This document shows, piece after piece, positions 3,991-64,000 of a stretch of DNA of 64,000 nt. Origin of the DNA: Eledone cirrhosa. Lineage: Eukaryota. The DNA lies in the NCBI GenBank assembly GCA_964016885.1, contig OZ024742.1, forward strand, positions 2,542,001 through 2,606,000, written 5' to 3'. Every line of letters begins with the position of its first letter. Position 1 is the stretch's first letter. Made by a program: the position numbers and the translations under genes. The notes beneath the pieces were generated by a model. The model had not been told where the DNA came from and made no database searches. It worked only from the letters and a program-made list of their open reading frames with translations.

Positions 3991-4064
3991 AAGCCGTGTG
4001 AGCGTGTATTATATATAATGGAAATATATATCATATATTGAGTTCTAAACTCGAAATAGTCTTT

Positions 4065-15918: not shown

Positions 15919-17209
15919 TTGCCTGGCCACAGACATCATATTGAAAATCAAGATATAAAAAGTGTCTTGTCGAAATATGATATCAAACAGGAAAGTGGAG
16001 CAATATACAAAAATATTTTCACAAACTGTAAGTTTACGATGTTAAAGAAAGCAGCAGCTTTCTTGAATGATGGTGTTCAAGTTGAGCTCACAAAATCAAA
16101 CCTCATCAACTGGATTATAACAAGGATTGAAAACTTCCTCCCGGAGACTTGCAAAATGTGTGACAAACAGTACTGCATTACATTTGGCCAAAAAACAGCT
16201 TTGGCATGCTTCATCTGTGGACAAGGAATACACGAAGCGTGCTACTTAAAAAAGATAAATAACCACACCATTCCAGATATTCTAGGCCTACACTGGCTAT
16301 GCGGTTATTGTTCACCAAGGGCCACAATAACGAATGAACCTAGGACCCTACCACAGACAGGCCGTTCTAAACAGACATTGATTGGCGAAACTGACATGGC
16401 AAATAAATCTTGCCACACACAGGCCATCCAAGTGCCTCTTGTAAATGACAAGAATGAAGACAATGACATGCAAACACCTACAAAACAAGAAACAGGAGAT
16501 CCTGCAGAAAAAGACCAAACTTCCCACGAAAAGAAACAGATTCAGAGCAAACGCTCAAATGAAGAAAGGCCAGTATGTATCCATTACAGGAGCAACAAGT
16601 GCAAACATGGTATTTCAGGTAAAGAGTGCACGTACAGTCACCCCAAACCATGCAAACCATATATCAACTTCGGTACTGATCGAAAAAAGGATGCCAAAAT
16701 GGCCGAGAATGTGAACTCCTTCACCCAAAGATGTGCCACAATTCGCTGAGAAAAAAGAATGTTTTGACGAGAATTGCAAATTTATGCACCGGAAGGGTAC
16801 AATTCGCATAAAAACTACTGAACCCACACCACCAGGACCAAGCTCAGCAGGGTATGAAAACCATTTCCCAAAAATGCAGAAACCAGGTCATGGCTCAACA
16901 GTGAATGAAAATCATGGTACTCAATTGCACACATCAGCTGTAACAAACCCAAACTCGCAGAAATTCGATACAGTAATGAATGAAAGCAGTTTTTTAGGCA
17001 TAATCTACCAACTACAACAACAGCTGTACTCCATACAGATGACTCAGCAAAACCAGGCAACATTGATACAAAGGCTGACACCTGGACTTACAGGGCACAT
17101 ACAACAAATACAGACAGCCCAGCAGACCGAATATCCAGTCAGCACAGTCCCAGCAACTACAACAGTCTTGCCAACAATAGGGCAGATTTATCCGGTACAA
17201 CAAGCATAA
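15919..17209 (+). pseudogene. LINE ORF1 with PHD-like finger and tandem CCCH-type zinc fingers (two A-run frameshifts)
   Basis: CKMC...CFICGQGIHEAC...WLCGYC; then CIHYRSNKCKHGISGKECTYSH, C..Y...GCQNGRECELLH and C...ECFDENCKFMH across frameshifts near 16688 and 16755. Confidence 0.75.
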
Positions 17210-24061: not shown

Positions 24062-25575
24062 TTCAATTCAATTCAATTCAATATATTTGGCAGAAATTAA
24101 AACATAGATGCTTCAGATGCCATATAAGGAGCGCGGGGGGGGGGGGGGGGGCATTTACACAGTTCGAAACACAGTGGTCCAACACCGGTCCAATTTCGCC
24201 TTGAATTGTTGCGTGGTTGACGCGTTGACTACTTCTTCTGGAAGCCGATTCCAGGATCCAGAGATGCGGATCGAGAAAGCAGCTTTCCGTCTATTTAGGC
24301 GCAAGCGGCGGTGAAATAGCTTTTTGTCATGTCCATGTAGACCCCTTTCAAGTGCCGGAATGAATAGGAGATCTTGAGGGAGATCGTAATGGCCATTGAA
24401 GAGATTGTAAGCCAAAATGAGATCGCCTCTTAGCCCTCGACGCTCCAAGGAAAAGAGGTTCAGCTTCTGCAGCCGGCTTTCGTAGGGCAGCTCATGAAGA
24501 CCCTGTACCATTCCAGTCGCTAGTCGTTGAACTCTCTCCAAGTGATGGATATCTCGGATGAGATAGGGGTTAGATGCTTGGATGCCATATTCTAGGTGCG
24601 GTCTCATGAGGGCGACATAGAGAGGCCTGAACATTTCTGGAGTAAGTTTGGTAAAAGAGCGTCGAATAAGAAAAAGAGAGCTCCTTGCCTTGTTTGCGGC
24701 TTGAATGCCATGTTTTGATGGTTTGAAGGACGAGTCGACCAGCAGACCAAGATCTTTAGTCTCCTCAACCTCCTTCAAAGGAGCAGTGCCACCGTTGAAG
24801 GTAAGAGCTGAGTTATAAGGTGTACCCACTTCCATATGGCAACACTTATCGACATTGATGTATAAATCCCAGTCAATGGACCAACTCCAGGCGCGTTGGA
24901 GGCTGGACTTGAGATTGTCGATCTCGCTCCTATGGGCTACCATTTTCACATCATCTGCAAATAGAAGCACGTTTCCACCAATCACGTCCGGCATGTCGTT
25001 GATGTATAGAAGGAAGAGAATTGGGCCCAACACAGAGCCCTGGGGAACCCCGCTGCCTACACCCACCCCCGATGACAGACTGCCATTGATCCGAACTCTG
25101 CAAGTACGACCCTCAAGAAATGATCCAATCCACTTTATAATCGAATCATGGAGACCATAGTTGCTGAGCTTATGCAGGAGCAGGCGGTGGTTGACAGAGT
25201 CAAAGGCTTTTGCGAAGGCGAGAAATATAATATCGGAAGCATCTCCATGCCTATTATCCTCGTCACCCATTCTTCCATCACGAGTAGGTTTGTAAGACAG
25301 AAACGTTTCGGGATGAAACCGTGTTGAGATGGAGAGATGCCAGTGAAAGACGCAAGATGAGCCATCATTGCCTGCTTGATTAGAGATTCCAAGGCTATAC
25401 AGACGATTGAGGTGAGACTCACGGGTCTGTACTTTGCCGGATCTTCTTTGTCGCCTTTTTTAAAGATAGGGCAAATTATAGCCACTTTCCAGTCGGCAGG
25501 AACAACTCCGGTAGCCAATGATAGGTTTAATAGTGTGTCTAGAAGTTTAACAAGGTTGGGTGCAACTTTCTCTCC
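24062..25575 (-). mobile_element. 5'-truncated CR1-clade LINE (RT only) with (TTGAA)n tail
   Basis: KYRPVSLTS, QHGF, FAKAFDSV, GVPQGSVLGPILF, FADD, KDLG and RPHLEY in ORFs 25135-25593 and 24155-25270; tail at 24062-24081. Confidence 0.9.
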
Positions 25576-27456
25576 TTGCTCTACTTTTATCATTGCTCTC
25601 CTTGCTCTCCTTGCTATCCTCGCTCTCCTTGCTCTCCTTTAATCATTGCTCTCCTTGCTCTCCTTTTATCATTGCTCTCCTTGCTCTCCTTTTCTCATTG
25701 CTCTCCTTGCTTCCCTTTTATCATTGCTCTCCTTGCTCTCCTTTTCTCATTGCTCTCCTTGCTTCCCTTTTATCCTTGCTCTCCTTGCTCTCCTTGCTCT
25801 CCTCGCTCTCCTTGCTCTCCTTTAATCATTGCTCTCCTTTTATCATTGCTCTCCTTGCTCTCCTTTTCTCATTGCTCTCCTTGCTTCCCTTTTATCATTG
25901 CTCTCCTTGCTCTCCTTTTCTCATTGCTCTCCTTGTTTCCCTTTTATCCTTGCTCTCCTTGCTCTCCTTGCTCCACTTGGTCTCCATTTCTCATTGCTCT
26001 CCTTGCTCTCTTGTTTCCCTTGCTCTCCTTGCTCTCCTTTTCTCATTGCTCTTATTGCTCTCCCTTTCTCCTTGCTCTCTTTGACTCCTTGCTCTCCTTT
26101 TCTTCTTGCTCTCCTTGCTCCCCTTTTCTCATTGCTCTCCATTTCTTATTGCTCTTATTGTTCTCCCTTTCTCCTTGCTTTCCTTTTATCCTTGCTCTCC
26201 TTGATCTCCATTTCTCATTGCACTCCTTGCTCTCTTGTTTCCCTTGCTCTCCTTGCTCTCCTTTTCTCATTGCTCTTATTGCTCTCACTTTCTCCTTGCT
26301 CTCTTTGACTCCTTGCTCTCCTTTTCTTCTTGCTCTCATTGCTCTTCTTTTGTCATTGCTCTCCTTGCTTTCCATTTCTCATTGCTCTTATTGCTCTCCC
26401 TTTCTCCTTACTGTCTTTGACTCCTTACTCTCCTTGCTTTCCTTTTATCCTTGCTCTCCTTGCTCCCCTTGGTCTCCATTTATCATTGCTCTCCTTGCTT
26501 TCCTTTTTCCCTTGCTCTCCTTGCTCTCCCTTTCCCTTGCTCTCCTTGCTCTCCTTTTCTCATTGCTCTCCTTGCTCTCATTTTCTCATTGCTCTTATTG
26601 CTCTCCCTTTCTCCTTGCTCTCTTTGACTCCTTGCTCTCCTTTTCTTCTTGCTCTCCTTGCTCCCCTTTTCTCATTGCTCTCCATTTCTTATTGCTCTTA
26701 TTGTTCTCCCTTTCTCCTTGCTCTCCTTGCTTTCCTTTTATCCTTGCTCTCCTTGATCTCCATTTCTCATTGCACTCCTTGCTCTCTTGTTTCCCTTGCT
26801 CTCCTTGCTCTCCTTTTCTCATTGCTCTCCTTGCTCTCCTTTTCTCATTGCTCTTATTGCTCTCACTTTCTCCTTGCTCTCTTTGACTCCTTGCTCTCCT
26901 TTTCTTCTTGCTCTCATTGCTCTTCTTTTGTCATTGCTCTCCTTGCTTTCCATTTCTTATTGCTCTTATTGCTCTCCCTTTCTCCTTGCTGTCTTTGACT
27001 CCTTACTCTCCTTGCTTTCCTTTTATCCTTGCTCTCCTTGCTCCCCTTGGTCTCCATTTATCATTGCTCTCCTTGCTCTCCTTTTCCCCTTGCTCTCCTT
27101 GCTCTCCCTTTCCCTTGCTCTCCTTGCTCTCCTTTTCTCATTGCTCTCCTTGCTCTCATTTTCTCATTGCTCTTATTGCTCTCCCTTTCTCCTTGCTCTC
27201 TTTGACTCCTTGCTCTGCTTTTCTTCTTGCTCTCCTTGCTCTTCTTGCTCTCTTTTTCTCCTAGCTCTCGTTGAATCCTTGCTCTCCTTTTCTTCTTGCT
27301 CTCATTGTTCTCCTTTTCTCCTTGCTCTCTTTGCTCTCCCTTTCTCATTGCTCTCCTTTGCTCCTTGCTCACCTTGACTCATTGCTCTTCTTTTCTCCTT
27401 GTTTCACCTTGCTCTCATTTTCTTATTGCTCTCTTTGCTCTCCTTTTATCCTTGCA
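25568..27456 (+). repeat. pyrimidine-rich minisatellite based on TTGCTCTCC with ~550-580-bp higher-order duplication
   Basis: Repeated ttgctctcc/cattgctctc units. Near-identical translations begin at 26330 vs 26908 and at 26235 vs 26787. Confidence 0.9.
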
Positions 27457-43344: not shown

Positions 43345-44035
43345 CATTGATTAGAGATAATTATGTGTAAAATGTCAACGAAGTCATATAGAAAAAAGTA
43401 TATGAATCCTAATTTTAAAAATACAGCTTTCCTTTATTATTTATTGTTAAAGAAAAATATAATTAAATGTAAACTGAAAGAAAAAGTTGATAAAATGATT
43501 GAAATTGTTGAAGACGAGACTGGTGAAGTCTTGAATGTGTTAAGTAAAGAAATAAAACGAAAGATATAGATAGAAAAGAAAATAAGAAATGCTTTTATAT
43601 TCATAACATTCCAACAAGTCATATATCTATCTATATATCTATGTTGTATTCTATATTGATATCTATCACATTAGCTATCTCTCTCTCTCTCTCTCTCTCT
43701 CCGTCTCCCTCTCTCTCCATCCCCCTCTCTCTCCCTCCTCCTCTCTCTCCTTCTCCCTCTCTCTCTGTTCACTCTCTCTACCCCTCAGCCCTCTCTAAAT
43801 GTCTATCTATCTCTCTTACGATGGACACATGTGCTGAGCTCGCTCGGTAAGTTTCGTTTAAATTTATCTGGAAATTGTGAACTGTAAACTTTCATTTTCG
43901 TACCATTTTGTAGAGGGACTGCCAGGTCAAATTTTGATCTGGTAATTCTCTCAAAATATTCTACGCCTTTAGGCGAAATAGTGTTGTAAACATTTTATCT
44001 TTCGAAAAATTTCGAAAAATCATATTTTTATAAAA

Positions 44036-45174
44036 ATGGCTGAAGCATCTTCACCAACAGTCAAAGGAAGAAAAGGGAAGTCATACTCACAGCTTCCCCC
44101 TGCCACTGTCACAGCAGCAGATGCCAAAGGCAGAGGTCAGCCAGAGGAAGAATTTTCTTCACCTGTTGACCGACAACTTGATGTAGCCACAACTATACAA
44201 GAAACTGAAAACAACAACAACAACGACAACAACAGCAACAATAAAGACAACAAAAACAACAACAACACAAACGTCACAAGTATCCACAAACCAAACGAGA
44301 AAGACAACAACAACAAAGATGAAAACAACTCAAACGACGAGAAACAAAACAATACAAACACCAACAACGAAAACAAAATATCTTTTGCACAAACGGCTAA
44401 ATTATCAGTCACTTATGTGCTTGAAGATATTTCAAAAGCCAAAGAACTGCTGGAAAAAGCCAAAAAATATGTATCTTTTGGCGAAAACGGTTCGTTTTCT
44501 ATAAATTCACCTCCAGAACTAAAAAAACAGACGGAATTACGAACTGTCGTATTCCGTACAATTTTAAATAAAACAAAAAAACCAGCACAACCATCTCAAG
44601 CTGAAATTCAGTTAGTACTGAAAGAAGCGATGAAAGACATCACTTTCATACAAAAGGATAAACTCTACGGGAGTTTATCCATATTGATGAAAGACGAATT
44701 GGCGGCGAAAAAATACTCTGTGTCGCCAATTCGTTCCACACACTACACCTTCTTCCCCACCTACATGGGTAAAAAAAACCCAGAGAATATGGATAACCAC
44801 CATCACCCCAAACATAAACTACTGGTGGTTACTAACCGGTTTCCTCAATTTAGACGAGGATAACCTCATTTCAATAGGGAAGGCATCCGGCGATGCGTTC
44901 AGTGGAACGAGTATCGAAGTTCTGACACAAATAAGGCCAGAACGTATCGCCCAAATCCCTGAGCGCGTCATGCTGGATGACCGTACCCACCTCAACATTA
45001 TTGTGGAGGGTAGGCGTCCCTCCTGTTACCTCTGTGGCAATAGAGGTCACCTGAGGGCTGCCTGTCCCCAGCTCACACAGAAAAAAACACTACTACCAAC
45101 ACCAACACCACCCCAACAACAACAACAAAACAACCACAACAGCAACAACACCAAAAACTAACAACACCACCACC

Positions 45175-45205
<31 letters not shown>

Positions 45206-45900
45206 ATACGTGAAAAAACAACACAGAATACTGTCCCACCCAACACCTCCCCACCCAAAACAAATACAAAAACACACACACCGCAAACACTACCAGAAAA
45301 TATACCCCTCCCACCCAACAAGGAAGACGAACCCCTTTCGTCGCAAGACGAAAAAGATCCCTTCCAAACAGTAAAAAGAAAGAAGAGGAGGCGCACCACA
45401 GACACACTTGTTAACTTTAACCCTCCCCAAGAGAACACAAATTATATACAAACCACCCCTCCCCGTCACACAACACTAACTGCTACACAAAAAAAGACTT
45501 TACAATATACATACATGAACACAGACAACAAAGAACTACTGAAAACAATTTCAGCAAACCCTTCGGTCCAAACTGAAGGGCCTAACTTTCTAACTGCTGT
45601 GGGACTACCTCATTTAAAAATGATTAAAGTCCCAATGAACTTTTATATAACACTGAAAACAAATTTCACGGGGGACGTGCCCCCCCCCCCCTGCGCCAAG
45701 CCAATCAACCGTTTCCTCCTAAAAAATCCCCACCCCATCCAGACACCCACTCAACCACAAACGCCCCAACCCCACAACACACTGATGCCCCTTCACTTCC
45801 ACAAACCACCACCCCACCCAACAACCCATCCCCAACCAGCATGGAAATTGAGCGGCCCGCTTCCCGGGACGCAGAGAGGTAAGTGCCTTTTCTCCTTACC
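44036..45900 (+). pseudogene. Tx1-like ORF1 (gag-like) with CCHC knuckle, frameshifted
   Basis: ORFs 44036-44863, 44970-45161 (LNIIVEGRRPSCYLCGNRGHLRAAC) and 45515-45919; N/Q/T/P-rich low-complexity tracts. Confidence 0.7.
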
Positions 45901-45906
45901 ACCAAC

Positions 45907-48900
45907 ATGGCTGTGCTAAGAGTAGGGTGTCTAAATGCGCGTGGCCTGGGCTCATCTTGGAAGCAAGCAATGCTTCTAAATGACCTCAGGTCACGATCTA
46001 TAAATGTGATGGTTATCTGCGAGGCCCGGATCAGCAGCATGCGACAGCTAGCCCCCACCTTTGACGAATTTGAGATGCACGCATCTCTCTGTCAGCCCGG
46101 AGGTGGGGTGGGGTTGTCGTTCTGCTTCAAAAACAGCTGGGCCTTGCCACACAGATAGTTCACTTGGACCCAGGGGGTCGACTGGTGGTGCTGGACCTTG
46201 GCAGTGGTGAAGGTAGAGCCTTTAGGCTGGTAGCCGCATATGCCCCTTTTCGGACAGAGCGGCCCGGCTTTTTCCAGCGTCTGGAGTCTTTTCTAGGGAC
46301 GTCCCGTTCCCTGCTTTTAGTGGGGGACTGGAATGGTATCCTGGATGCACGTTGGGACTATGCAGGGGCATGTCCCGATAGAGAGGGGTCCAACAGCCTC
46401 AAGGGGTTACTCGGCCGATTTGACCTGGCCGATAGATTTCGACTAGATTTTCCGACGGTGCCAACCTGGTCTTGGTCAAATCGCAGCGGATCATCTAGGT
46501 CGTACCTAGATAGGTTTTTAGTTAGAAATAAGGACAGGGACTTTTTAAGTTGTCCAGAAATGCTCATGGTTGGCTATTCAGACCACAAGTTGGTGACCTG
46601 CATGGTCAACCTTGATAGAACGCATAGACAGGGCCCCGGTTACTGGAAGCTCAACTTGTCCTTGCCGGCAAGTAGAGCTTACAGGGATCGGATTAGTACG
46701 TTAGTTAAGGAACGGTTGACTGGAGCGATCGACAACAGCAGGTGGTGGGTATCTCTAAAGAGAGAGATTAGAGTAGTCTCGATAGAATTTAGTAAGGCTC
46801 TAGCTGCGGATAGGAATAGGAAGGAAAGGGAGCTAATAGATAGAGTAGAAGAGGCAATTAGAAGCGGCGACGTGGCCAGAGTGCTAGCGTCGAGAACGGC
46901 TTTGAGCCAGTTTTTCGACGCGAAGCAGGAAGGCTGCGTTGTCCGAAGTAAAATACGTGATCTAGGGAACGAGGGGACCAAAGCTGTTAGCTGGGCCCGC
47001 CTGACAGAGGCCAACAGTGGGACTAAATCCACCATCCGGTCTTTGCGAGACCAGGATGGACGGGCGATTCTTGAGCCTAAGCAGATGTGTGAGGCCTTTC
47101 AAAGGCACTTTGCCCGACTGTTCGGAAGGGGCGGCTAGCCGGTTGGGAATGTGGACTTCGGTCCATACCTCGACGGCCTGCCGCGTCTCTCGGACAGGGA
47201 GGCGAAGTCCTACGAGGAGCCGATTTCGGCCGCTGAGATAGAGGACGTGCTGAGCCAATGCGGCAAACGCAAATCCCCGGGTCTCGATGGTCTTCCATAC
47301 GAATTATATCTAGCTATGCCGGACTTGTTCCCCGATTCCTCGAGGCGGTCTACTGCAACTGGCAACAGAACGTGAGAATTCCCTGTACTGTGACCAAGGG
47401 CGTAGTCACGCTAGTGAGGAAGGACGAGAACAAGGGGGACGAAATAAGTAACTTCAGGCCCATAACTCTGCTAAATACAGAGTTACAGATTTTGGCCAAG
47501 GTGCTAGCAAAGAGGTTGGCGCTTGTCGTGGGCAATCTGGTGGGAGATGCGCAGACATGTGCTATCCCGTCCAGGTCCATCCATGACAACCTCCATCTCA
47601 TGCGATACATCATAGAGAGGGTTAATAACGAACCCGGCTTTGGTGGGGCTCTGATCAACTTGGATCAATCTAAGGCGTTCGATAGGGTCGACCATGGTTA
47701 CCTGGATGCAGTGCTAGCGGCGGCAGGCTTCGGACCCGTTTTCAGGGGCTGGATCACTGCTATGCATAGCAGCCACATCTGCTCTAGGGTCAAGGTGAAC
47801 GGCTACCTCTCGGAGCCATTCAAAATCGCGCGGTCCATCCGACAAGGGTGCCCTCTCTCCTCCCTTCTGTATGTGTTGACTCTCGAGCCACTACTGCGGA
47901 AGTTGGAGTTGTTGCAGGGCATCCCTTTGGAACCGGGATTGCAGAAAGCGGTGTCGGCCTACGCCGATGACGTGACAGTAATGGTGTCGACGGCCTCCGA
48001 AATCGGGGCGGTCGGCACCTTACTGGAGGAGTACGAAAGGTTCACAGGGGCTAAGCTGAACCGGGACAAGTTGATCGGTTTGCAACTCGGCACGTGGAGG
48101 GGCAGACCGATGCCCTCCGATGGCGTCGTCGGACGCTGGACGGAGGGCCCGGTGAAGTTGCTCGGGGTCTGGTTCGGACCAGACCTCCAGGTGGAGAAGA
48201 ACTGGGCGGAGGTTACGAACAGGTATTTGCACTGACCCAGATGTGGGCCAGTTGCAAACTATCCCTGAAAGGTCGGGCGGAGGTGGCGAACACCTATATA
48301 GCGTCCGTCATCTACTACCACCTGACCGTAGTGCCTTGCCCAAGGGAAACCCTCGTCAAGATGGAGCGCGCGCTCTTCCAATTCCTTTGGAAGAGGCGGG
48401 CTCCCTTGGTGAGGAGATCCATCTGCTGTCAACACCCTTCGAAAGGAGGGCTGGGGATGCCGTGGCTCATGATGCGTAAACACGCACTAAGGCTACGGCA
48501 CCTCCACGTATTCCTCACCGGTCAACCGGTGTGGGCCTCGTTTGTGAGACGAACCTTTCCCAGACTCGTTTCACTCACCGAGCTGCAATCCTGGGTCAAG
48601 CAAAGACCGAGAAAACTAGGCGCCTGGCACACTGAGTGTGCCCAGGCGCTCACCGCCCTCTGGCAGGCGGATCCGGTTATCGGTGGAGACTCCACCGCAA
48701 CATTCTATAGAGGGCTGGTACGCAGCAGGTGCGACGACGCCCTCGGAGAAGCCCTAGACATGGAGGACGACGAACTGGCCAGCCTGTTCGATAGGACATT
48801 CAGCCCGGGACCTATGGACAACTTCCAGAAGTCCCTGTCCTGGCAGTGCTACCGAGGGGCTCTACCCGTTCGAGAAAAGCTCTACAGACACGGGTGCCCG

Positions 48901-49297
48901 GGTAGGGACCCTGCCAAAAAGATCTGTCCCATTGGTACACTGCTCGGGCGTAGCCGATCTGTGGGGCCATGTCGAACAACAGCTGTCAAGGGTGGGACCG
49001 ATCCGGTTGACCACCGAGTCTATTGTAATGATCAAGCCGCCTCCCCCCTTCAAAGATGAAGGAGAGGCGTGCGTAATAGCCATGGTGAAAGAAGTTGTAT
49101 GGTGGACGCGTCTAAAAGGACTGAGGTCAGACACCTTTCTCTCTGGCCAACAACTGGTCCGTTTCTTCCGATATCATTTCGGAAGAAGGATCAGGATGGA
49201 GAGAGAGGTGCTGCACCCCAGTCGTTTTTATGAAAGGTGGGTGAAAGTGGCGAGAATGGCCCGTGTGAATGGGCCTTCTCTTTACATAAGCCTGTAG
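45907..49297 (+). pseudogene. Tx1-like ORF2: APE + RT + C-terminal region, frameshifted
   Basis: LNARGL, AAYAP, GDWN, YLDRF, SDH, GYWKLN, KSPGLDGLPYE, NFRPITLLN, LDQSKAFDRVDH, IRQGCPLS, AYADD, GGLG. Confidence 0.92.
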
Positions 49298-49561
49298 GTG
49301 GAAAAGAGGAAGGAACGAGGGAGCACCCCCTCTCTGTGCTCCTGGGGAGAAGGGTTGCACACTTTTTTCGGGGGTATGTGCGACCCCCCAAGGCGCCTCC
49401 TCTCTATTGAGGATTTTGTTATAAATTTTATTTTTTGTTATATTTTATTTTATTTTTATATTTTGTTATTGCCTCCTCCATATTGAGGACGCCTTGTTTT
49501 GTAAACTCCCCTCATTGTACTTGTCCCACTTTTGATGCCCTGGTGGCAAATAAAAGAAACA

Positions 49562-49616
<55 letters not shown>

Positions 49617-49618
49617 CT

Positions 49619-51465
49619 ATCTGCTCTAGGGTCAAGGTGAACGGCTACCTCTCGGAGCCGTTCAAAATCGCGCGGTCCATCCGACAAGGGTGCCCTCTCT
49701 CCTCCCTTCTGTATGTATTGACTCTCGAGCCACTACTGCGGAAGTTGGAGTTGTTGCAGGGCATCCCTTTGGAACCGGGATTGCGGAAAGCGGTGTCGGC
49801 CTACGCCGATGACGTGACAGTAATGGTGTCGACGGCCTCCGAAATCGAGGCGGTCGGCACCTTACTGGAGGAGTACGAAAAGTTCACAGGGGCTAAGCTG
49901 AACCGGGACAAGTCGATCGGTTTGCAACTCGGCACGTGGAGGGGCAGACCGATGCCCTCCGATAGCGTCGTCGGACGCTGGACGGAGGGCCCGGTGAAGT
50001 TGCTCGGGGTCTGGTTCGGACCGGACCTCCAGGTGGAGAAAAACTGGGCGGAGGTTACGAACAGAGTGTTTGCACTGACCCAGAAGTGGGCCAGTTGCAA
50101 ACTATCCCTGAAAGGTCGGGCGGAGGTGGCGAACACCTACATAGCGTCCGTCATCTACTACCGCCTGACCGTAGTGCCCTGCCCAAGGGAAACCCTCACC
50201 AAGATGGAGCGCGCGCTCTTCCAATTCCTTTGGAAGAGGCGGGCTCCTATGGTGAGGAGATCCATCTGCTGTCAACACCCTTCGAAAGGAGGGCTGGGGA
50301 TGCCGTGGCTAATGATGCGTAAACACGCATTAAGGCTACGGCACCTCTACGTATTCCTCACCGGACAACCGGTGTGGGCCTCGTTTGTGAGACGAACCTT
50401 TCCCAGACTCGTCTCACTCACCGAGCTGCAATCCTGGGTCAAGCAAAGACCGAGAAAACTGGGCGCCTGGCACACTGAGTGTGCCCAGGCGCTCACCGCC
50501 CTCTGGCAGGCGGATCCGGTTATCAGTGGAGACTCCACCGCAACATTCTATAGAGGGCTGGTACGCAGCAGGTGCGACGACGCCCTCGGAGAAGCCCTAG
50601 ACATGGAGGAGGACGAACTGGCCAGCCTTTTCGGTAGGACATTCAGCCCGGGACCTATGGACAACTTCCAGAAGTCCCTGGCCTGGCAGTGCTACCGAGG
50701 GGCTTTACCCGTTCGAGAAAGGCTCTACAGACACGGGCGCCCGGGTAGGGACCCCGCCAAAAAGATCTGTCCCAGATGCGTGTGCGACGAGGAAACCGTT
50801 GCACACGCATTAGTACACTGCTCGGGCGTAGCCGATCTGTGGGGCTATGTCGAACAACTGCTGTCAAGGGTGGGACCGATCCGGTTGACCACCGAGTCTA
50901 TTGTAATGATCAAGCCGCCTCCCCCCTTCAAAGATGAAGCAGAGGCGGTGTTTCTGTGCGTAATAGCCATGGCGAAAGAGGTTGTATGGTGGACGCGTCT
51001 GAAAGGACTGAGGTCGGGCACCTTTCTCTCTGGCCAACAACTGGTCCGTTTCTTCCGATATCATTTCGGAAGAAGGATCAGGATGGAGAGAGAGGTGCTG
51101 CACCCCAGCCGTTTCTATGAAAGATGGGTGAAAGTGGCGAGAATGGCCCGTGTGAATGGGCCTTCACTCTACATCAGACTATAGGTGAGGAAGATGAAAG
51201 ACCAAGGGAGCACCCCTTCTCTGTGCTCCTGAGGAGAAGGGTTGCACACTTTTTTCGGGGGTGTGTGCGACCCCCCAAGGCGCCTCCTCTCTATTGAGGA
51301 TTTTGTTAAAAATTTTATTTTTTGTTATATCTTATTTTATTTTTATATTTTGTTATTGCCTCCTCCTTATTGAGGACGCCTTTTTGTGTAAACTCCCCCC
51401 TTTGTACTTGTCCCACTTTTGATGCCCTAGTGGCAAATAAAAGAAATATATCTATCTATCTATCT
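49619..51465 (+). mobile_element. second, 5'-truncated copy of the same Tx1-like LINE, directly abutting the first copy's (ATCT)n
   Basis: 49619-51184 is an uninterrupted frame from mid-RT to the stop, including CPRC...H...C, which is deleted in copy 1. Same 3'UTR and (TATC)n end. Confidence 0.92.
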
Positions 51466-51725: not shown

Positions 51726-52122
51726 AGTTTATATAACGGCCAAATTGAATTGCAGAATATACATAAGAAGAGGTGAAGGGTGTGGTTAGGGAGTTCGCTT
51801 GTCCACCACGTGGATCTGGGTTTCGTCCATTTTTATGGTACCTTGCACAAGGGGTATTCTATTTCAGCCCTGGTTTGTCCAATGTTTTGTCCATAGAGTT
51901 AGATATACGAAAACTGTCTTATATACCTGGATTATCTGATATCTGGAGAATCAAGCAAACTGGGAACTTCGCGTTTTCATAAATTAATGATTTGCTTAAG
52001 TGAAACCAAATAGTCATATATTAGTGGCATAGGGATGTGATTAAAAATCAGAATAACATTTATATAATTTATTCATTGAATATAATTACATGTAACAGAG
52101 GTTCTTATTTTAATAATAATAA

Positions 52123-52427
52123 GATATGGTATTAATAGAGAAAGAAAGCAAACAGTGTTGGATCATAGATTTAGCCTGTCCAGTTGATAACAAGGTATGC
52201 GATAAAGAAATTGATACATATGACAGGTGAGCTTGGGAGGTTAAGCAGTTTTGGTCACTGAAAAAGGTGGTGGTAATGTCAACAATAGTTGGAGTATTGG
52301 GAAGAGTGAGTAAAGTTATTGAGAAGTACATTAAACAAATAGGGATTGCAATACTGGTGGAGCGCTTAGAACAATAACAGCATTGCTTAGAACAACACGA
52401 ATACTCCGGAAGGTACTAAAAAAATAA
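52123..52427 (+). pseudogene. C-terminal restriction-like endonuclease (RLE) region of an R4/Dong-like non-LTR retrotransposon, 5'-truncated at (TAA)4
   Basis: Manual translation: DMVLIEKESKQCWIIDLACPVDNKVCDKEIDTYDR*AWEVKQFWSLKKVVVMSTIVGVLGRVSKVIEKYIKQIGIAILVERLEQ/TALLRTTRILRKVLKK*. This fits the R4-clade (P)D..D..P.D..KE...W...V..GALG...ALL..ARILR.VL pattern. Preceded by taataataataa at 52111-52122. Confidence 0.8.
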
Positions 52428-55400
52428 GGCGTGTTACCTCATTTCACTACCAGTGAACTTAGGTAAAACTGTAATACATTTCCAGTGTTAGAAGCTGAAA
52501 TAAGGGGTCTTACCTCAGTTCATAAACCAGCGAACAACTAACACTGTAGTACATCTCCAGTGTTAGAAGCAGAGATAAGAGTGTTACCTCAGTTCATAAA
52601 CCAGCGAACAACTAACACTGTAACACATCTCCAGTGTTAGAAGCTGAGATAAGGAGTGTTACCTTAGTTCACTGGTAGTGAACAGTTAACACTGCATTAC
52701 ATCTCCAGTGTTAGAAGCTGAGATAAGGGGTGTTACCTCAGTGCACTGTTAGTGAACAGCTAACACTGTAATACATCTCCAGGGTTAGAAGCTTAGATAA
52801 GGGGTGTTACCTCAGTTCACTGTTAGTGAACAGCTAACACTGTAATACATCTCCAGTGTGAGAAGCTGAGATAAGGGGTGTTACCTCAGTGCACTGTTAG
52901 TGAACAGCTAACACTGTAATACATCTCCAGGGTTAGAAGCTTAGATAAGGGGTGTTACCTCAGTTCACTGTTAGTGAACAGCTAACACTGTAATACATCT
53001 CCAGTGTGAGAAGCTGAGATAAGGGGTGTTACCTCAGTTAACTGGTAGTGAACAGCTAACACTGTAATACATCTCCAGTGTGAGAAGCTGAGATAAGGGG
53101 TGTTACCTCAGTTCACTGTTAGTGAACAGCTAACACAGTAATACATCTCCAGTGTGAGAAGCTGAGATAAGGGGTGTTACCTCAGTGCACTGTTAGTGAA
53201 CAGCTAACACAGTAATACATCTCCAGGGTTAGAAGCTTAGATAAGGGGTGTTACCTCAGTTCACTGTTAGTGAACAGCTAACACTGTAATACATCTCCAG
53301 TGTGAGAAGCTGAGATAAGGGGTGTTACCTCAGTTAACTGGTAGTGAACAGCTAACACTGTAATACATCTCCAGTGTTAAAAGCTAAGATAAGGGGTGTT
53401 AGCTCAGTTCACCGGTAGTGAACAGATAACACTGTAATACATCTCCAGTGTTAAAAGCTGAGATAAGGGGTGTTAGCTCAGTTCACCGGTAGTGAACAGC
53501 TAGCACTAATACAACTCCAGTGTTAGAAGCTGAGATAAGGGGTGTTACCTCAGTTAACTGGTAGTGAACAGCTAACACTGTAATACATCTCCAGTGTTAG
53601 AAGCTGAGATAAGGGGTGTTACCTCAGTTAACTGGTAGTGAACAGCTAACACTGTAATACATCTCCAGTGTTAAAAGCTGAGATAAGGGGTGTTAGCTCA
53701 GTTCACCGGTAGTGAACAGATAACACTGTAATACATCTCCAGTGTTAAAAGCTGAGATAAGGGGTGTTAGCTCAGTTCACCGGTAGTGAACAGCTAACAC
53801 TGTAATACATCTCCAGTGTTAAAAGCTAAGATAAGGGGTGTTAGCTCAGTTCACCGGTAGTGAACAGCTAACACTGTAATACATCTCCAGTGTTAGAAGC
53901 TGAGATAAGGGGTGTTAGCTCAGTTCACCGGTAGTGAACAGATAACACTGTAATACATCTCCAGTGTTAGAAGCTGAGATAAGGGGTGTTACTTCAGTTC
54001 ACTGGTAGTGAACAGCTAGCACTAATACAACTCCAGTGTTAGAAGCTGAGATAAGGTGTGTTACCTTAGTTCACTGGTAGTGAACAATTAACACTGCATT
54101 ACATCTCAAGTGTTAGAAGCTGAGATAAGGGGTGTTACCTCAGTTCACTGTTAGTGAACAGCTAACACTGTAATACATCTCTAGTGTTAGAAGCTGAGAT
54201 AAGGTGTGTTACCTTAGTTCACTGTTAGTGAACAGCTAACACTGTAATACATCTCCAGTGTTAGAAGCTGAGATAAGGCGTGTTACCTCAGTTCACTGTT
54301 AGTAAAAAGCTAACACTGTAATACATCTCCAGGGTTAGAAGCTTAGATAAGGGGTGGTACCTCAGTTCACTGTTAGTGAACAGCTAACACAGTAATACAT
54401 CTCCAGGCTTAGAAGCTTAGATAAGGGGTGTTACCTCAGCACACTGTTAGTGAACAGCTAACACTGTAATACATCTCCAGTGTTAGAAGCTGAGATAAGG
54501 GGTGTTACCTCAGTTCACCGGTAGTGAACAGCTAGCACTAATACAACTCCAGTGTTAGAAGCTGAGATAAGGGGTGTTACCTTAGTTCACTGGTAGTGAA
54601 CAGTTAACACTGCATTACATCTCCAGTGTTAGAAGCTGAGATAAGGGGTGTTACCTCAGTTCACTGTTAGTGAACAGCTAACACTAATACATATGCAGTG
54701 TTAGAAGCTGAGATAAGGGGTGTTACTTCAGTTCACTGTTAGTGAACAGCTAACATTGTAATACATATGCAGTGTTAGAAGCTGAGATAAAGGGTGTTAC
54801 TTCAGTTCACTGTTAGTGAACAGCTAACATTGTAATAGATCTCCAGGGCTAGAAGCTGAGATAAGGGGTGTTACCTTAGTTCACTTGTATTGAACAGTTA
54901 ACATTGTAATACATCTCCAGTGTTAGAAGCTGAGATAAGGGGTGTTACCTTAGTTCACTGGTAGTGAACAGCTAACACTGTAATACATCTCCAGGGTTAG
55001 AAGCTGAGATAAGGGGTGTTACCTCAGTTAACTGGTAGTGAACAGCTAACACTATAATACGTCTCCAGTGTTAGAAACTGAGATAAGGGGTGTTACCTCA
55101 CTTCACTGGTAGTGGGCAGGTAACACTGTAACACATCTCCAGTGTTAGAAGCTGAGATACGGGGTGTTACCTCAGTTCACTGGTAGTGAACAGCTAACAC
55201 TGTAATACATCTCCAGTCTGAGAAGCAGAGATAAGGAGTGTTACCTCAGTTCACCCGCAGTGAACAGCTAACACTGTGATACATCTCCAGTGTTAAAAGC
55301 TGAGATAATGGGTGTTACCTCAGTTAACTGATAGTGAACAGTTAACACTGTAATATTTCTCCAGTGTTGAAAGCTGAGATAAGGGGTGTTACTTCAGTTC

Positions 55401-58400
55401 ACTGGTAGTGAACAGTTAACACTGTAATACATCTCCAGGGTTAGAAGCTGAGATAAGGTGTGTTACCTTAGTTCACTGGTAGTGAACAGTTAACATTGTA
55501 ATACATCTCCAGTGCTAGAAGCTGAGATAAGGGGTGTTACCTTAGTTCACTGGTAGTGAACAGCTAACACTGTAATACATCTCCAGTGTTAGAAGCTGAG
55601 ATAAGGTGTATTACCTCAGTTCGCTGGTAGTAAACAACTAACACTGTAATACTTCTCCAGTGTTAGAAGAATAGATAAGTGGTGTTACCTCAGCACACTG
55701 TTAGTGAACAGCTAACACTGTAATACATCTCCAGTGTTAGAAGCTGAGATAAGGGGTGTTACCTCAGTTCACTGTTAGTGAACAGCTAACACTGTAATAG
55801 ATCTCCAGGGTTAGAAGCTCAGATACGGGGTGTTACCTCAGTTCAATGTTAGTGAACAGCTAACACTGTAATACATCTCTAGGGTATGAAGCTGAGATAA
55901 TGGGTGTTACCTCAGTTAACTGGTAGTGAACAGTTAACACTGTAATATTTCTCAAGTGTTGAAAACTGAGATAAGGGGTGTTACTTCAGTTCACTGGTAG
56001 TGAACAGCTAACACTAATACATCTCCAGTCTTAGAAGCTGAGATAAGGGGTGTTACCTCAGTTCATAAACCAGCGAACAACTAACACTGTAATACTTCTC
56101 CAGTGTGAGAAGCTGATATAAGTGGTGTTACCTCAGTTCACTGGTAGTGAACAGCTAACACTGTAATACTTCTCCAGTGTGAGAAGCTGAAATAAGGTGT
56201 GTTAGCTCAGTTCACCGGTAGTGAACAGCTAGCACTAATACAACTCCAGTGTTAGAAGCTGAGATAAGGGGTGTTACCTTAGTTCACTGGTAGTGAACAG
56301 CTAACACTGTAATACATCTCCAGTGTTAGAAGCTGAGATAAGGGGTGTTACCTCAGTTCATAAACCCACGAACAACTAACACTGTAACACATCTCCAGTG
56401 TTAGAAGCTGAGATAAGGGGTGTTACCTTAGTTCACTGGTAGTGAACAACTAACACTGTAATACTTATCCAGTGTTAGAAGCTGCGATAAGGGGTGTTAC
56501 CTCACTTCACTGGTAGTGAACAGCTAACACTGTAATACATCTCCAGTGTTAGAAGCTGAGATAAGGGGTGTTACCTCAGTTCACTGTTAGTGAACAGCTA
56601 ACACTGTAATACATCTCCAGGGTTAGAGGCTGAGATAAGGGGTGTTACCTCAGCTCACTGTTAGTGAACAGTTAACACTGTAATATTTCTCCAGTGTTGA
56701 AAGCTTAGATGAGGGTGTGTTACTTAAGTTCACTGGTAGTGAAAGGCTAGCACTAATACAACTCAAGTGTTAGAAGCTGAGATAAGGGGTGTTACCTCAG
56801 TTCACTCGTAGTGAACAGCTAGCACCAATACAACTCCAGTGTTAGAAGCTGAGATAAGGGGTGTCACCTCAGTTCACTGGAAGTGAACAGCTAACACTGT
56901 AATACATATCCAGTGTTAGAAGCTGAGATAAGGGGTGTTACCTCAGTTCATAAACCAGCGAACAACTAACACAGTAATACATCTCCAGTGTTAGAAGATG
57001 AGATAAGGAGTGTTACCTTAGTTCACTGGTAGTGAACAGTTAACACTTCATTACATCTCCAGTGTTAGAAGCTGAGATAAGGGGTTTTTCCTCAGTTCAA
57101 TGGTAGTGAACAGTTAACACTGTAATACATGTCACCGGTTAGAAGCTGTGATAAGGGGTGTTACCTTAGTTCACTGGTAATGAACAGTTAACGCTTTAAT
57201 ACATCTCCCGTGTTAGAAGCTGAGATAAGGGGTGTTACCTTAGTTCACTGGTAGTGAACAGCTAACACTGTAATACATCTCCAGTGTTAAAAGCTTAGAT
57301 AAGGTGTGTTACCTCAGCACACTGTTAGTGAACAGCTAACATTGTAATACTTCTCAAGTGTTAGAAGCTGAGATAAGGGGTGTTGCGTCAGTTAACTGGT
57401 AGTGAACATCTAACACTGTATTACATCTCCAGTGTTAGAAGCTGAGATAAGGGGTGTTACCTCAGTTCACTGGTAGTGAACAGTTAACACTGTAATACAT
57501 CTCCAGTGTTAGACGCTGAGATAAGGGGTGTTACCTGAGGTAACAGGTAGTGAACAGCTAACACTGTAATACATCTCCAGGGTTAGAAGCTTAGATAAGG
57601 GGTGTTACCTCAGCTCACTGTTAGTGAACAGCTAACAATGTAATACATCTCCAGTGTTAGAAGCTGAGATAAGGGTTGTTACCTCAGTTCACTGGAAGTG
57701 AACTGAGGTAACACTGTAATATTTCTTCAGTGTTGAAAGCTGAAAGAAGGGGTGTTACTTCAGTTCAATGGTAGTGAGCAGGTAACACTGTAATACATCT
57801 CCAGTGTTAGAAGCTGAAATACGGGGTGTTACCTCAGTTCACTGGTAGTGAACAGCTAACACTGTAATACATCTCCAGTGTTGAAAGCAGTGATAAGGGA
57901 TGTTGCCTCAGTTCACTGTTAGTGAATAGTTAACACTGTAATACTTCTCCAGTGTTGAAAGCAGAGATAAGGGGTGTTACCTCTGTTGACTGGTAGTGAA
58001 CAGCTAGGACTTATACGACTCCAGTGTTAGAAGCTGAGATAAGGGGTGTTACCTCACTTCACTGGTAGTGAGCAGGTAACACTGTAATACATCTCCAGTG
58101 TTAGAAGCTGAAATACGGGGTGTTACCTCAGTTCACTGGTAGTGAACAGCTAACACTGTATTACATCTCCAGTGTTAGAAGCTGAGATAAGGGGTGTTAC
58201 CTCAGTTCACCGGTAGTGAACAGCTAACACTGTATTACATCTCCAGTGTTAGAAGCTGAGATAAGGGGTGTTGCCTCAGTTCACTGGTAGTGAACAGCTA
58301 ACACTGTAATACATCTCCAGTGTTGAAAGCAGAGATAAGGGATGTTGCCTCAGTTCACTGTTACTGAATAGCTAACACTGTAATACTTCTCCAGTGTTGA

Positions 58401-61400
58401 AAGCAGAGATAAGGGGTGTTACCTCTGTTGACTGGTAGTGAACAGCTAACACTGTAATACATCTCCAGTGTTAAAAGCTGAGATAAGGGGTGTTACCTCA
58501 GTTTACTACCAGTGAACAGCTAACACTGTAATACATCTCGAGTGTTAGAAGCTGAGATAAGGGGTATTACCTTAGTTCACTGGCAGTGAACAGCTAACAC
58601 TAATACATCTATAGTGTTAGAAGCTGAGATAAGGGGTGTTACCTCAGTTCACTGATGGTGAACAGATAACACTGTAATACATCTCCAGGGTTAGAAGCTG
58701 AGATAATGGGTGTTACCTTAGTTCACTGGTAGTGAACAGTTAACACTGTAATACATATCCAGTGTTATAAGGTGAGATAAGGGGTGTTACCTCAGTTCAC
58801 TGGCAGTGAACAGCTAACACTAATAAATCTATAGTGTTAGAAGCTGAGATAAGGGGTGTTACTTCAGTTCACTGATAGTGAACAGCTAACACTGTAATAC
58901 ATCTCCAGGGTTAGAAGCTGAGATAATGGGTGTTACCTCAGTTCACTGGTAGTGAACAGCTAACACTGTAATACATCTCCAGTCTGAGAAGCAGAGATAA
59001 GGAGTGTTACCGCAGTTCACCCGCAGTGAACAGCTAACACTGTGATACATCTCCAGTGTTAAAAGCTGAGATAATGGGTGTTACCTCAGTTAACTGATAG
59101 TGAACAGTTAACACTGTAATATTTCTCCAGTGTTGAAAGCTGAGATAAGGGGTGTTACTTCAGTTCACTGGTAGTGAACAGTTAACACTGTAATACATCT
59201 CCAGGGTTAGAAGCTGAGATAAGGTGTGTTACCTTAGTTCACTGGTAGTGAACAGTTAACATTGTAATACATCTCCAGTGCTAGAAGCTGAGATAAGGGG
59301 TGTTACCTTAGTTCACTGGTAGTGAACAGCTAACACTGTAATACATCTCCAGTGTTAGAAGCTGAGATAAGGTGTATTACCTCAGTTCGCTGGTAGTAAA
59401 CAACTAACACTGTAATACTTCTCCAGTGTTAGAAGAATAGATAAGTGGTGTTACCTCAGCACACTGTTAGTGAACAGCTAACACTGTAATACATCTCCAG
59501 TGTTAGAAGCTGAGATAAGGGGTGTTACCTCAGTTCACTGTTAGTGAACAGCTAACACTGTAATAGATCTCCAGGGTTAGAAGCTCAGATACGGGGTGTT
59601 ACCTCAGTTCAATGTTAGTGAACAGCTAACACTGTAATACATCTCTAGGGTATGAAGCTGAGATAATGGGTGTTACCTCAGTTAACTGGTAGTGAACAGT
59701 TAACACTGTAATATTTCTCAAGTGTTGAAAACTGAGATAAGGGGTGTTACTTCAGTTCACTGGTAGTGAACAGCTAACACTAATACATCTCCAGTCTTAG
59801 AAGCTGAGATAAGGGGTGTTACCTCAGTTCATAAACCAGCGAACAACTAACACTGTAATACTTCTCCAGTGTGAGAAGCTGATATAAGTGGTGTTACCTC
59901 AGTTCACTGGTAGTGAACAGCTAACACTGTAATACTTCTCCAGTGTGAGAAGCTGAAATAAGGTGTGTTAGCTCAGTTCACCGGTAGTGAACAGCTAGCA
60001 CTAATACAACTCCAGTGTTAGAAGCTGAGATAAGGGGTGTTACCTTAGTTCACTGGTAGTGAACAGCTAACACTGTAATACATCTCCAGTGTTAGAAGCT
60101 GAGATAAGGGGTGTTACCTCAGTTCATAAACCCACGAACAACTAACACTGTAACACATCTCCAGTGTTAGAAGCTGAGATAAGGGGTGTTACCTTAGTTC
60201 ACTGGTAGTGAACAACTAACACTGTAATACTTATCCAGTGTTAGAAGCTGCGATAAGGGGTGTTACCTCACTTCACTGGTAGTGAACAGCTAACACTGTA
60301 ATACATCTCCAGTGTTAGAAGCTGAGATAAGGGGTGTTACCTCAGTTCACTGTTAGTGAACAGCTAACACTGTAATACATCTCCAGGGTTAGAGGCTGAG
60401 ATAAGGGGTGTTACCTCAGCTCACTGTTAGTGAACAGTTAACACTGTAATATTTCTCCAGTGTTGAAAGCTTAGATGAGGGTGTGTTACTTAAGTTCACT
60501 GGTAGTGAAAGGCTAGCACTAATACAACTCAAGTGTTAGAAGCTGAGATAAGGGGTGTTACCTCAGTTCACTCGTAGTGAACAGCTAGCACCAATACAAC
60601 TCCAGTGTTAGAAGCTGAGATAAGGGGTGTCACCTCAGTTCACTGGAAGTGAACAGCTAACACTGTAATACATATCCAGTGTTAGAAGCTGAGATAAGGG
60701 GTGTTACCTCAGTTCATAAACCAGCGAACAACTAACACAGTAATACATCTCCAGTGTTAGAAGATGAGATAAGGAGTGTTACCTTAGTTCACTGGTAGTG
60801 AACAGTTAACACTTCATTACATCTCCAGTGTTAGAAGCTGAGATAAGGGGTTTTTCCTCAGTTCAATGGTAGTGAACAGTTAACACTGTAATACATGTCA
60901 CCGGTTAGAAGCTGTGATAAGGGGTGTTACCTTAGTTCACTGGTAATGAACAGTTAACGCTTTAATACATCTCCCGTGTTAGAAGCTGAGATAAGGGGTG
61001 TTACCTTAGTTCACTGGTAGTGAACAGCTAACACTGTAATACATCTCCAGTGTTAAAAGCTTAGATAAGGTGTGTTACCTCAGCACACTGTTAGTGAACA
61101 GCTAACATTGTAATACTTCTCAAGTGTTAGAAGCTGAGATAAGGGGTGTTGCGTCAGTTAACTGGTAGTGAACATCTAACACTGTATTACATCTCCAGTG
61201 TTAGAAGCTGAGATAAGGGGTGTTACCTCAGTTCACTGGTAGTGAACAGTTAACACTGTAATACATCTCCAGTGTTAGACGCTGAGATAAGGGGTGTTAC
61301 CTGAGGTAACAGGTAGTGAACAGCTAACACTGTAATACATCTCCAGGGTTAGAAGCTTAGATAAGGGGTGTTACCTCAGCTCACTGTTAGTGAACAGCTA

Positions 61401-64000
61401 ACAATGTAATACATCTCCAGTGTTAGAAGCTGAGATAAGGGTTGTTACCTCAGTTCACTGGAAGTGAACTGAGGTAACACTGTAATATTTCTTCAGTGTT
61501 GAAAGCTGAGAGAAGGGGTGTTACTTCAGTTCAATGGTAGTGAGCAGGTAACACTGTAATACATCTCCAGTGTTAGAAGCTGAAATACGGGGTGTTACCT
61601 CAGTTCACTGGTAGTGAACAGCTAACACTGTAATACATCTCCAGTGTTGAAAGCAGTGATAAGGGATGTTGCCTCAGTTCACTGTTAGTGAATAGTTAAC
61701 ACTGTAATACTTCTCCAGTGTTGAAAGCAGAGATAAGGGGTGTTACCTCTGTTGACTGGTAGTGAACAGCTAGGACTTATACGACTCCAGTGTTAGAAGC
61801 TGAGATAAGGGGTGTTACCTCACTTCACTGGTAGTGAGCAGGTAACACTGTAATACATCTCCAGTGTTAGAAGCTGAAATACGGGGTGTTACCTCAGTTC
61901 ACTGGTAGTGAACAGCTAACACTGTATTACATCTCCAGTGTTAGAAGCTGAGATAAGGGGTGTTACCTCAGTTCACCGGTAGTGAACAGCTAACACTGTA
62001 TTACATCTCCAGTGTTAGAAGCTGAGATAAGGGGTGTTGCCTCAGTTCACTGGTAGTGAACAGCTAACACTGTAATACATCTCCAGTGTTGAAAGCAGAG
62101 ATAAGGGATGTTGCCTCAGTTCACTGTTACTGAATAGCTAACACTGTAATACTTCTCCAGTGTTGAAAGCAGAGATAAGGGGTGTTACCTCTGTTGACTG
62201 GTAGTGAACAGCTAACACTGTAATACATCTCCAGTGTTAAAAGCTGAGATAAGGGGTGTTACCTCAGTTTACTACCAGTGAACAGCTAACACTGTAATAC
62301 ATCTCGAGTGTTAGAAGCTGAGATAAGGGGTATTACCTTAGTTCACTGGCAGTGAACAGCTAACACTAATACATCTATAGTGTTAGAAGCTGAGATAAGG
62401 GGTGTTACCTCAGTTCACTGATGGTGAACAGATAACACTGTAATACATCTCCAGGGTTAGAAGCTGAGATAATGGGTGTTACCTTAGTTCACTGGTAGTG
62501 AACAGTTAACACTGTAATACATATCCAGTGTTATAAGGTGAGATAAGGGGTGTTACCTCAGTTCACTGGCAGTGAACAGCTAACACTAATAAATCTATAG
62601 TGTTAGAAGCTGAGATAAGGGGTGTTACTTCAGTTCACTGATAGTGAACAGCTAACACTGTAATACATCTCCAGGGTTAGAAGCTGAGATAATGGGTGTT
62701 ACCTTAGTTCACTGGTAGTGAACAGGTAACGATGTAATACGTTTCCAGTGTTAGAGGCTGGGATAAGGGGTGTTACCTCAGTTCACTGATAGTGAACAGC
62801 TAACACTGTAATACATCTCGAGTGTTAGAAGCTGAGATAAGGGGTGTTACCTCAGTCAACTGGTAGTGAACAGCTAACACTGTAATTCATCTCCAGTGTT
62901 AGAAGCTGAGATAAGGGGTTTACCTCAGTTCACTGGTATTGAAGAGCTAACACTGTAATACATCTCCAGTGTTAGAAGCTGAGATAAGGGGTGTTACCTC
63001 AGTTCACTGATAGTGAACAGCTAACACTGTAATACATCTCGAGTGTTAGAAGCTTAGATAAGGGGTGTTACCTCAGTTAACTGGTAGTGAACAGGTAACA
63101 ATGTAATACATTTCCAGTGTTAGAGGCTGGGATAAGGGGTGTTACCTCAGTTCACTGATAGTGAACAGCTAACACTGTAATACATCTCCAGTGTTAGATG
63201 CTGAGATAAGGGGTGTTACCTCAGTTTACTGGTAGTGAACAACTAACACTGTAATACATCTCGAGTGTTAGAAGCTTAGATAAGGGGTGTTAACTCAGTT
63301 CACTACCAGTGAACAGGTAACAATGTAATACATTTCCAGTGTTAGAGGCTGGGATAAGGGGTGTTACCTCAGTTCACTGATAGTAAACAGTTAACACTGT
63401 AATACATCTCCAGTGTTAGAAGCTGATATAAGGGGTGTTACCTTAGATAACTGGTAGTGAACATTTAACACTGCATTACATCTCAAGTGTTAGAAGCTGA
63501 GATAAGGGGTGTTACCTTAGTTCACTGGTATTGAACAGTTAACATTGTAATACATCTCCAGTGTTAGAAGCTGAGATAAGGGGTGTTACCTTAGTTCACT
63601 GGTAGTGAACAGCTAACACTGTAATACATCTCCAGGGTTAGAAGCTGAGATAAGGGGTGTTACCTCAGTTAACTGGTAGTGAACAGCTAACACTATAATA
63701 CGTCTCCAGTGTTAGAAGCTGAGATAAGGGGTGTTACCTCACTTCACTGGTAGTGGGCAGGTAACACTGTAACACATCTCCAGTGTTAGAAGCTGAGATA
63801 CGTGGTGTTACCTCAGTTCACTGCTAGTGAAAGGCTAGCACTGTAATACATCTCCAGTCTGAGAAGCAGAGATAAGGGGTATTACCTCAGCACACTCTTA
63901 GTGAACAGCTAACACTGTGATACATCTCCAGTGTTAAAAGCTGAGATAATGGGTGTTACCTCAGTTAACTGATAGTGAACAGTTAACACTGTAATATTTC
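52424..64000 (+). repeat. 74-bp tandem satellite, ~156 units, continuing past the window end
   Basis: Consensus ataaggggtgttacctcagttcactggtagtgaacagctaacactgtaatacatctccagtgttagaagctgag. Period measured as 52801 to 52875. Confidence 0.97.
55172..62703 (+). repeat. 3766-bp (51-monomer) higher-order repeat, two near-identical copies
   Basis: Rare variants recur at offset 3766: 55211/58977, 55671/59437 and 58801/62567. Confidence 0.92.

Follow-up and report, generated by a model that had tools for sequence, protein, structure and literature searches.

The stretch analysed here (the window, 64,000 bp, G000:C3:2542001-2606000) lies on a 379-Mb contig of the Eledone cirrhosa assembly, at a distance of 2.6 Mb from the contig end, and the genome searched comprises 3.0 Gb in 1,796 contigs. 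On the forward strand of the window, a (TAA)4 target site at 52111-52122 marks the 5' truncation point of a LINE insertion, followed by the decayed last ~100 codons of the element's single ORF (52123-52427). This remnant is truncated just inside the PD-D motif, and its translation contains two in-frame stops and one frameshift before ending in ILRKVLKK and the stop codon TAA at 52425-52427. The stop codon itself lies inside the first unit of a tandem array that starts at 52424, so that no spacer separates ORF and array. The first unit (76 bp, 52424-52499) occupies the original 3'UTR position and is the most diverged of the array, with an inverted hairpin loop and an extended hairpin arm. Within the window, TRF reported a period of 74 bp and 156.7 copies at 52424-63996. 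The target site, the ORF end and the directly adjoining array had all been described in the initial annotation and are present as stated.

The 74-bp array runs from 52424 to the window edge at 64000 and on beyond it. The ~11.5-kb array described earlier is real within the window, but its actual extent is 20,748 bp (281 units), reaching window-equivalent position 73171 (G000:C3:2615171). There, ~9 kb past the window, it is closed by the terminus of the element itself, followed by a TAA tail, and the array is thus nested inside one 5'-truncated insertion. The last 8 bases of (TAA)4 equal the 8-base tail after the far terminus; this match may represent a target-site duplication, one that is inseparable from the element's own TAA tail. 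The junction at 51733-52167 recurs unchanged in contigs from runs X1 and X2, which may derive from the assembled sample. The array contains a recent 3,766-bp head-to-tail duplication (55161-62730), the copies of which differ by 5 mismatches in 3,804 bp; it may be a real recent expansion or an assembly artefact. A second internal duplication spans 2,139 bp.

Several other repeats occur upstream in the window. Positions 1-4000 are GC-rich and strongly G-skewed, with long stop-free frames that had no match in Pfam. A SINE that we take to resemble octopod SINEs forms a 240-bp tandem trimer at 7067-7756, and the head of the same SINE was seen within 90 bases downstream of 30 of 97 unit-bearing LINE copies; it seems to share the TAA target and might be Dong-mobilised. 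LINE material at 15438-19965, with weak PHD, APE and RT matches in three frames, is presumably CR1-like by architecture, and a CT-rich 26/52-bp tandem array occupies 25566-27455. APE-type LINE material with a zf-RVT domain, which we assume to be L1/Tx1-like, extends from 43982 to 51460; its 3' part and tail are present a second time at 49505-51460.

The ORF fragment matches the C-terminus of P0001, a protein with RT-thumb, zinc-knuckle and PD-D endonuclease, with 64% identity over 87 aa (E 1e-33) and the same end point, which bears out the earlier reading of 52123-52427 as a decayed RLE C-terminus. P0001 is in turn 45% identical to a 1,141-aa intact ORF of a sister family in the same genome (L162), in which RVT_1 is present, the best structure matches are R2 proteins and a weak second stretch falls at the PD-D region. 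A Pfam search of the window fragment returned no family, and tblastn to the sister-family ORF missed the fragment; P0001 bridged the two. In its long copies, the satellite-bearing family has RT fragments further upstream. Judging from these predicted domains, the parent element is an RLE LINE of the R2 group, in which the RT is followed by a zinc knuckle and a C-terminal PD-D endonuclease.

TAA-type tails follow nearly all listed termini and TAA runs occur at many 5' breaks, in line with the TAA target proposed in the initial annotation. The name R4/Dong-like used here is based on target, architecture and general resemblance. Relatives of the RT in the Atlas are unnamed RT clusters from cnidarians and molluscs, and the N-terminus of the sister-family ORF matched no zinc-finger family. 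Elements of the R4/Dong clade characteristically lack zinc fingers at the N-terminus, which is of a diverged Myb/SANT-like kind, and their RTs group with those of R4, Dong and Rex6. Target and tail fit Dong of the R4/Dong clade, a (TAA)n target having been reported for Dong in molluscs (accessible text of PMC7998251). As described in the accessible parts of the literature (PMC7998251, PMC4640811, PMC3728117), elements of this clade resemble the present one in combining an RT with a C-terminal RLE, a (TAA)n target and a short 3'UTR with a TAA tail, whereas the present family is decayed, its own 5' end was not recovered, and its placement in the clade is tentative.

All of the 19 best other ORF-end copies run into the 74-bp unit. 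In 17 of them there is at most one unit, followed mostly by a 9-base terminus and the TAA tail; of the remaining two, one has 1.5 units and the other an array. Single copies therefore sit between the ORF stop and (TAA)n, as the initial annotation had predicted from its proposal that the monomer is the element's 3'UTR. That proposal holds: it is almost certain that the 74-bp unit is the 3'UTR of the LINE family and that the arrays grew in place.

The family is old and looks dead. Its copies are ~9% off the column majority, and ORF divergence is similar in array-bearing copies (9.3%) and in copies with a single unit, here called solos (8.8%). If a scale on which a divergence of 0.09 corresponds to 25 My (accessible part of PMC13282606) applies, and the genome is that of an octopus, the copies would be tens of millions of years old. 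Open frames of the satellite-bearing family, which numbers ~280 copies by a very rough estimate, do not exceed 249 aa among 150 scored protein matches, and the long open frames among these matches belong to a younger family, 42-44% identical. The younger RLE family (L162, L163; endonuclease region 44% identical) retains intact ORFs of 1,000+ aa, numbers at least 4,558 3' ends and carries a UTR that looks different from the 74-bp unit. Used as a control, its 4,558 UTR motifs included two tail-nested dimers and no arrays of period 55-85. A consensus RNA fold of the UTR from 18 dead copies was uninformative, with compensatory changes at 0 of 20 pairs.

The same joint between units was found at 32 loci, 29 on large contigs, two on small contigs and one from a later sample. 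Joint-bearing loci span 1.2 to about 617 units (45 kb), and a 54-bp variant reaches about 705 units (39 kb). With long head-to-tail arrays (20.7, about 39 and about 45 kb), higher-order duplications and several loci, these repeats are satellite DNA. Among 31 loci examined at both ends, 28 begin at the ORF end; two of the 28 have small deletions and one retains only 15 ORF bases, and the remaining three loci lack the ORF. At the 3' side, 25 of the 31 arrays end in the terminus, one ends in a degenerate form and five lack it. ORF remnants are shorter in arrays (median 213 bp, n=25) than in solos (544 bp, n=24; p 0.01). The searches for array loci were biased toward arrays close to the consensus and toward the known joint; when copies were selected by the stop motif only, 10 of 53 had more than one unit, and the joint was the same in all ten. 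Four fuzzy joint matches (L158, L164, L184, L187) proved to be solo termini and were dropped from the count. Apart from a 68-bp array, no other periods were found on the parts listed, unrelated repeats swamping the matches past the first 100, and joints other than the known ones may exist.

Small arrays carry locus-private variants across their own units, and in some dimers private variants are common to the units. In other arrays one or the other hairpin is missing, which leaves 54-56-bp and 40-bp units, and some flip strand. Arrays of 20-45 kb with locus-private variants and kb-scale duplications point to local expansion at the DNA level. Of the iteration by RT that had been proposed for the window array, slippage may have produced a single founding event, whereas the expansion looks DNA-level. 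Internal strand inversion, apparently at the hairpin, was seen in 54-bp-variant arrays at C8:35.12-35.16 Mb (L114/L143/L144/L232) and at C6:101.34-101.35 Mb (L112/L113). At another locus (L142, G000:C14:9947.4-9950.0 kb), a 39-unit array with 15 ORF bases of its own begins immediately after the 3' end of another Dong-like family, an arrangement that may be either a nested insertion in the TAA tail or a template jump.

An array on C9 consists of 26 units of 68 bp with a joint of its own, 2-base homology at that joint and the CA allele. It sits on a decayed ORF end, 22 of 25 units are identical, and the left break is the same as in the 74-bp arrays. This array shows a recent, independent DNA-level birth from the same UTR, without RT. 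Exchange between loci had been suggested by units being less diverged than ORFs (4.1% vs 8.1%), a difference that largely disappeared among pattern-only loci (5.9% vs 7.3%, p 0.29) and was put down to ascertainment.

The bases after the unit end are AT at the common joint; of 2,258 joints read in 33 stretches, about 28 deviate from this, and no CG-type joint occurs. The parental ends have 0 bases in common at the break, and only AAG, two bases further on, is shared in register. The microhomology invoked in the initial annotation (aaataagg vs gagataagg) compares the ORF end with the joint itself, that is, parent with product, and is not supported. Slippage of a proofreading DNA polymerase at AAG should give CG, and the founding event may therefore have been a slip of the RT on an end with two mismatched bases; R2 RT can jump with little pairing (accessible part of 10.1101/2021.04.30.442027).

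A derived T at unit position 61 distinguishes arrays from solos. First units carry it in 19 of 22 cases and last units in 18 of 20, and the last unit has it in all four closed loci of 2-3 units; the figure for solos is 14 of 69. T61 completes a perfect 9-bp hairpin; the fold of the unit has a z of -4.0 as single-stranded DNA (0 of 200 shuffles) and of -2.2 as RNA. Further array-shared bases are T58, with 14 of 31 against 4 of 61 in solos, and T22, with 8 against 1. Solos with T61 number 13, vs 13.7 expected from decay, and this lack of a surplus indicates that there is no hidden pool of collapsed interior daughters. Arrays of CG or CA units have the same joint. At unit positions 61-62 of solos, CA outnumbers TG by 30 to 13, while six other CpG sites show the reverse (75 to 109; p 0.0007); a CA-linked ORF subfamily was sought among the solos and not found.

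By coordinates, the arrays show a distal or small-chromosome bias. They lie at most 35 Mb from an end at 27 of 29 loci, vs 13 of 34 for solos, and all seven loci of up to 4 units are distal in this sense. In 100 copies picked regardless of unit number, arrays occurred at 9 of 44 distal and 1 of 56 interior copies; the 35-Mb cut was set after the first sample had been seen, and a 20-Mb cut in the same sample gave 6 of 28 vs 4 of 72 (p 0.03). With the 35-Mb cut fixed, a new stop-motif sample had arrays at 10 of 28 distal vs 0 of 24 interior copies (one unplaced locus omitted), and its new loci alone gave 5 of 16 vs 0 of 17.

No ORF base marks array-bearing copies relative to solos, and five ORF CpG sites have decayed alike in both. 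Most of the tested CpGs fall in Arg codons, so an active source would leave them unmarked too. On an ORF tree, array and solo labels change 10 times, vs 12.2 when shuffled (14 of 500 shuffles as low), and monophyly of the array ORF ends is not rejected (p-AU 0.22), a test that covered 13 array rows among 78, rows below 200 bp being excluded. In a 117-unit array on C17, the units are those of the main family, while the adjoining ORF end clusters with a sister subfamily (support of 97/97, and 6 of the 10 diagnostic bases). A search for TAA-flanked insertions truncated inside an array gave 0 matches, and no near-identical multi-variant units common to distant arrays were seen, that is, no recent transfer was caught.

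How one joint came to lie at 32 loci may be explained in several ways. In the best explanation, to which we give about an even chance, the joint would have arisen once from the 3'UTR of the old RLE LINE family and would then have been copied, by homology to the 74-bp UTR, into resident dead single-UTR copies near chromosome ends. Gene conversion/gap repair or circular DNA would have provided the route, and expansion in place would have followed by unequal exchange and hairpin-aided slippage. The unit identity, the nesting, the shared joint, the distal location and the locus-private variants are observed; from them we infer the single origin, the homology-seeded spread and the role of hairpins. 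The distal arrays, the missing T61 surplus, the lack of an ORF mark, the C17 array, the lack of array-truncated insertions and the 68-bp birth argue for copying at the DNA level. Against it, monophyly of the ORF ends is not rejected, the shorter ORF remnants of arrays fit an origin at the RT level, and T61 in the last unit of 2-3-unit loci would need conversion up to the unit end. The homology available is also only 74 bp at about 90% identity, CpG sites that lie in Arg codons are uninformative, and a recent transfer was not caught. A less likely alternative is that a single active source duplicated its 3'UTR, perhaps because the RT slipped in the register of AAG, kept its terminus and retrotransposed, every daughter being inserted with at least two units and then expanding locally. 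It would account for the single joint, for T61 in first and last units together with T58 and T22, for array ORFs of the same age as solo ORFs, for the shorter remnants and the monophyly result, and for an AT rather than a CG joint, as expected of a polymerase that extends a 2-base mismatched end and with a precedent in R2 RT (accessible part of 10.1101/2021.04.30.442027). Such a source would nevertheless need a strong distal insertion bias that is missing in solos of the same age, and the solos without a T61 surplus, the sister-subfamily ORF end on C17 and the 0 array-truncated TAA-flanked insertions all stand against it.

Recurrent duplication at each locus, whether by an RT slip at every insertion or by hairpin-guided DNA slippage in T61 copies, is improbable. 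The 68-bp array did arise independently with an identical left break, deletions and inversions linked to the hairpins appear repeatedly from array to array, and some dimers share private variants, but 32 loci use one homology-free break while the better-paired 68-bp joint was seen once. RT slips at each insertion also predict position-61 alleles and locations like those of solos, and arrays of CG or CA units carry the same joint as the others. Least credible of all, and hardly to be expected, is the view of the initial annotation that the window captures the satellite at its birth junction, its transcripts acting as trans-mobilised templates or as RT decoys. The window array is among the larger ones and starts exactly at the stop codon. 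The joint is, however, common to 32 loci of a family ~9% diverged, so the window is probably not the birthplace; nothing marks it as a source among them, and the arrays of about 617 and 705 units are larger. The satellite-bearing family has no long open frame among the 150 scored matches and the intact sister family has another UTR, and a present-day template or decoy role of array transcripts appears unlikely.

In anatomy and distal bias, the closest known system is the group of squamate satellites derived from SINEs (sSat; Vassetzky et al. 2023, PMC10702118). In the accessible text, these are tandem repeats of partial retroposons at many loci, with few to hundreds of units, terminal units that retain element ends and a subtelomeric tendency. 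They differ in that the present parent is an autonomous RLE LINE and the unit is almost exactly its 3'UTR from the stop codon; the arrays here also usually keep both element ends, a minority situation in sSat, and one joint is dominant. Satellites with a monomer from the 3' non-coding part of a retroelement include the cetacean common satellite (L1), 18HT (HeT-A/TART), chicken HinfI (CR1) and PisTR-A (Ogre 3'UTR). As far as the accessible sources go (PMC9659126; PMC12628747), the evidence for these is either similarity of sequence or repeats contained in LTR elements, whereas 1 to about 700 units are all found here in place inside RLE insertions.

A single junction at many loci is also known for Rsp-like repeats inserted into 1.688 clusters in Drosophila (Sproul et al. 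2020, PMC7403614), whose spread into landing sites that already existed is attributed, in the part of that paper available, to conversion seeded by homology or to circular DNA. Landing sites in the present case would be the single 74-bp UTRs of dead LINEs instead of the clusters of another satellite. In internal arrays of the Ogre or Helitron type, the array is moved by the element's own transposition; shorter ORF remnants and array-shared bases favour such movement here, while the lack of array-truncated insertions, the distal arrays and the sister-subfamily ORF on C17 speak against it. By analogy, the present satellite works like sSat and possibly like Rsp-like, as a variant of TE-derived satellites and not a separate category. 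No Dong/R4-derived satellite was found in the mainly open-access literature searched, and a Repbase or Dfam note of this repeat may exist.

The passage from transposon fragment to multi-locus satellite is usually inferred by similarity after the junctions have gone. In this genome, the copies range from solos through dimers to arrays of about 700 units with stop codon, terminus and target intact, a second independent birth and a control family are also at hand, and the series makes the distinction between carriage by transposition and spread by DNA repair directly testable. The satellite may have homed into its own parent, a single birth having led to colonisation of ~1/3 of the distal copies of the dead family through 74 bp of DNA homology; we consider the chance of this slightly short of even. 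If it is true, fossil LINE copies would have served as pre-laid landing pads, and every stage of a dated series, from the solo UTR up to a 45-kb satellite, would be preserved in one genome with both ends of the element in place.
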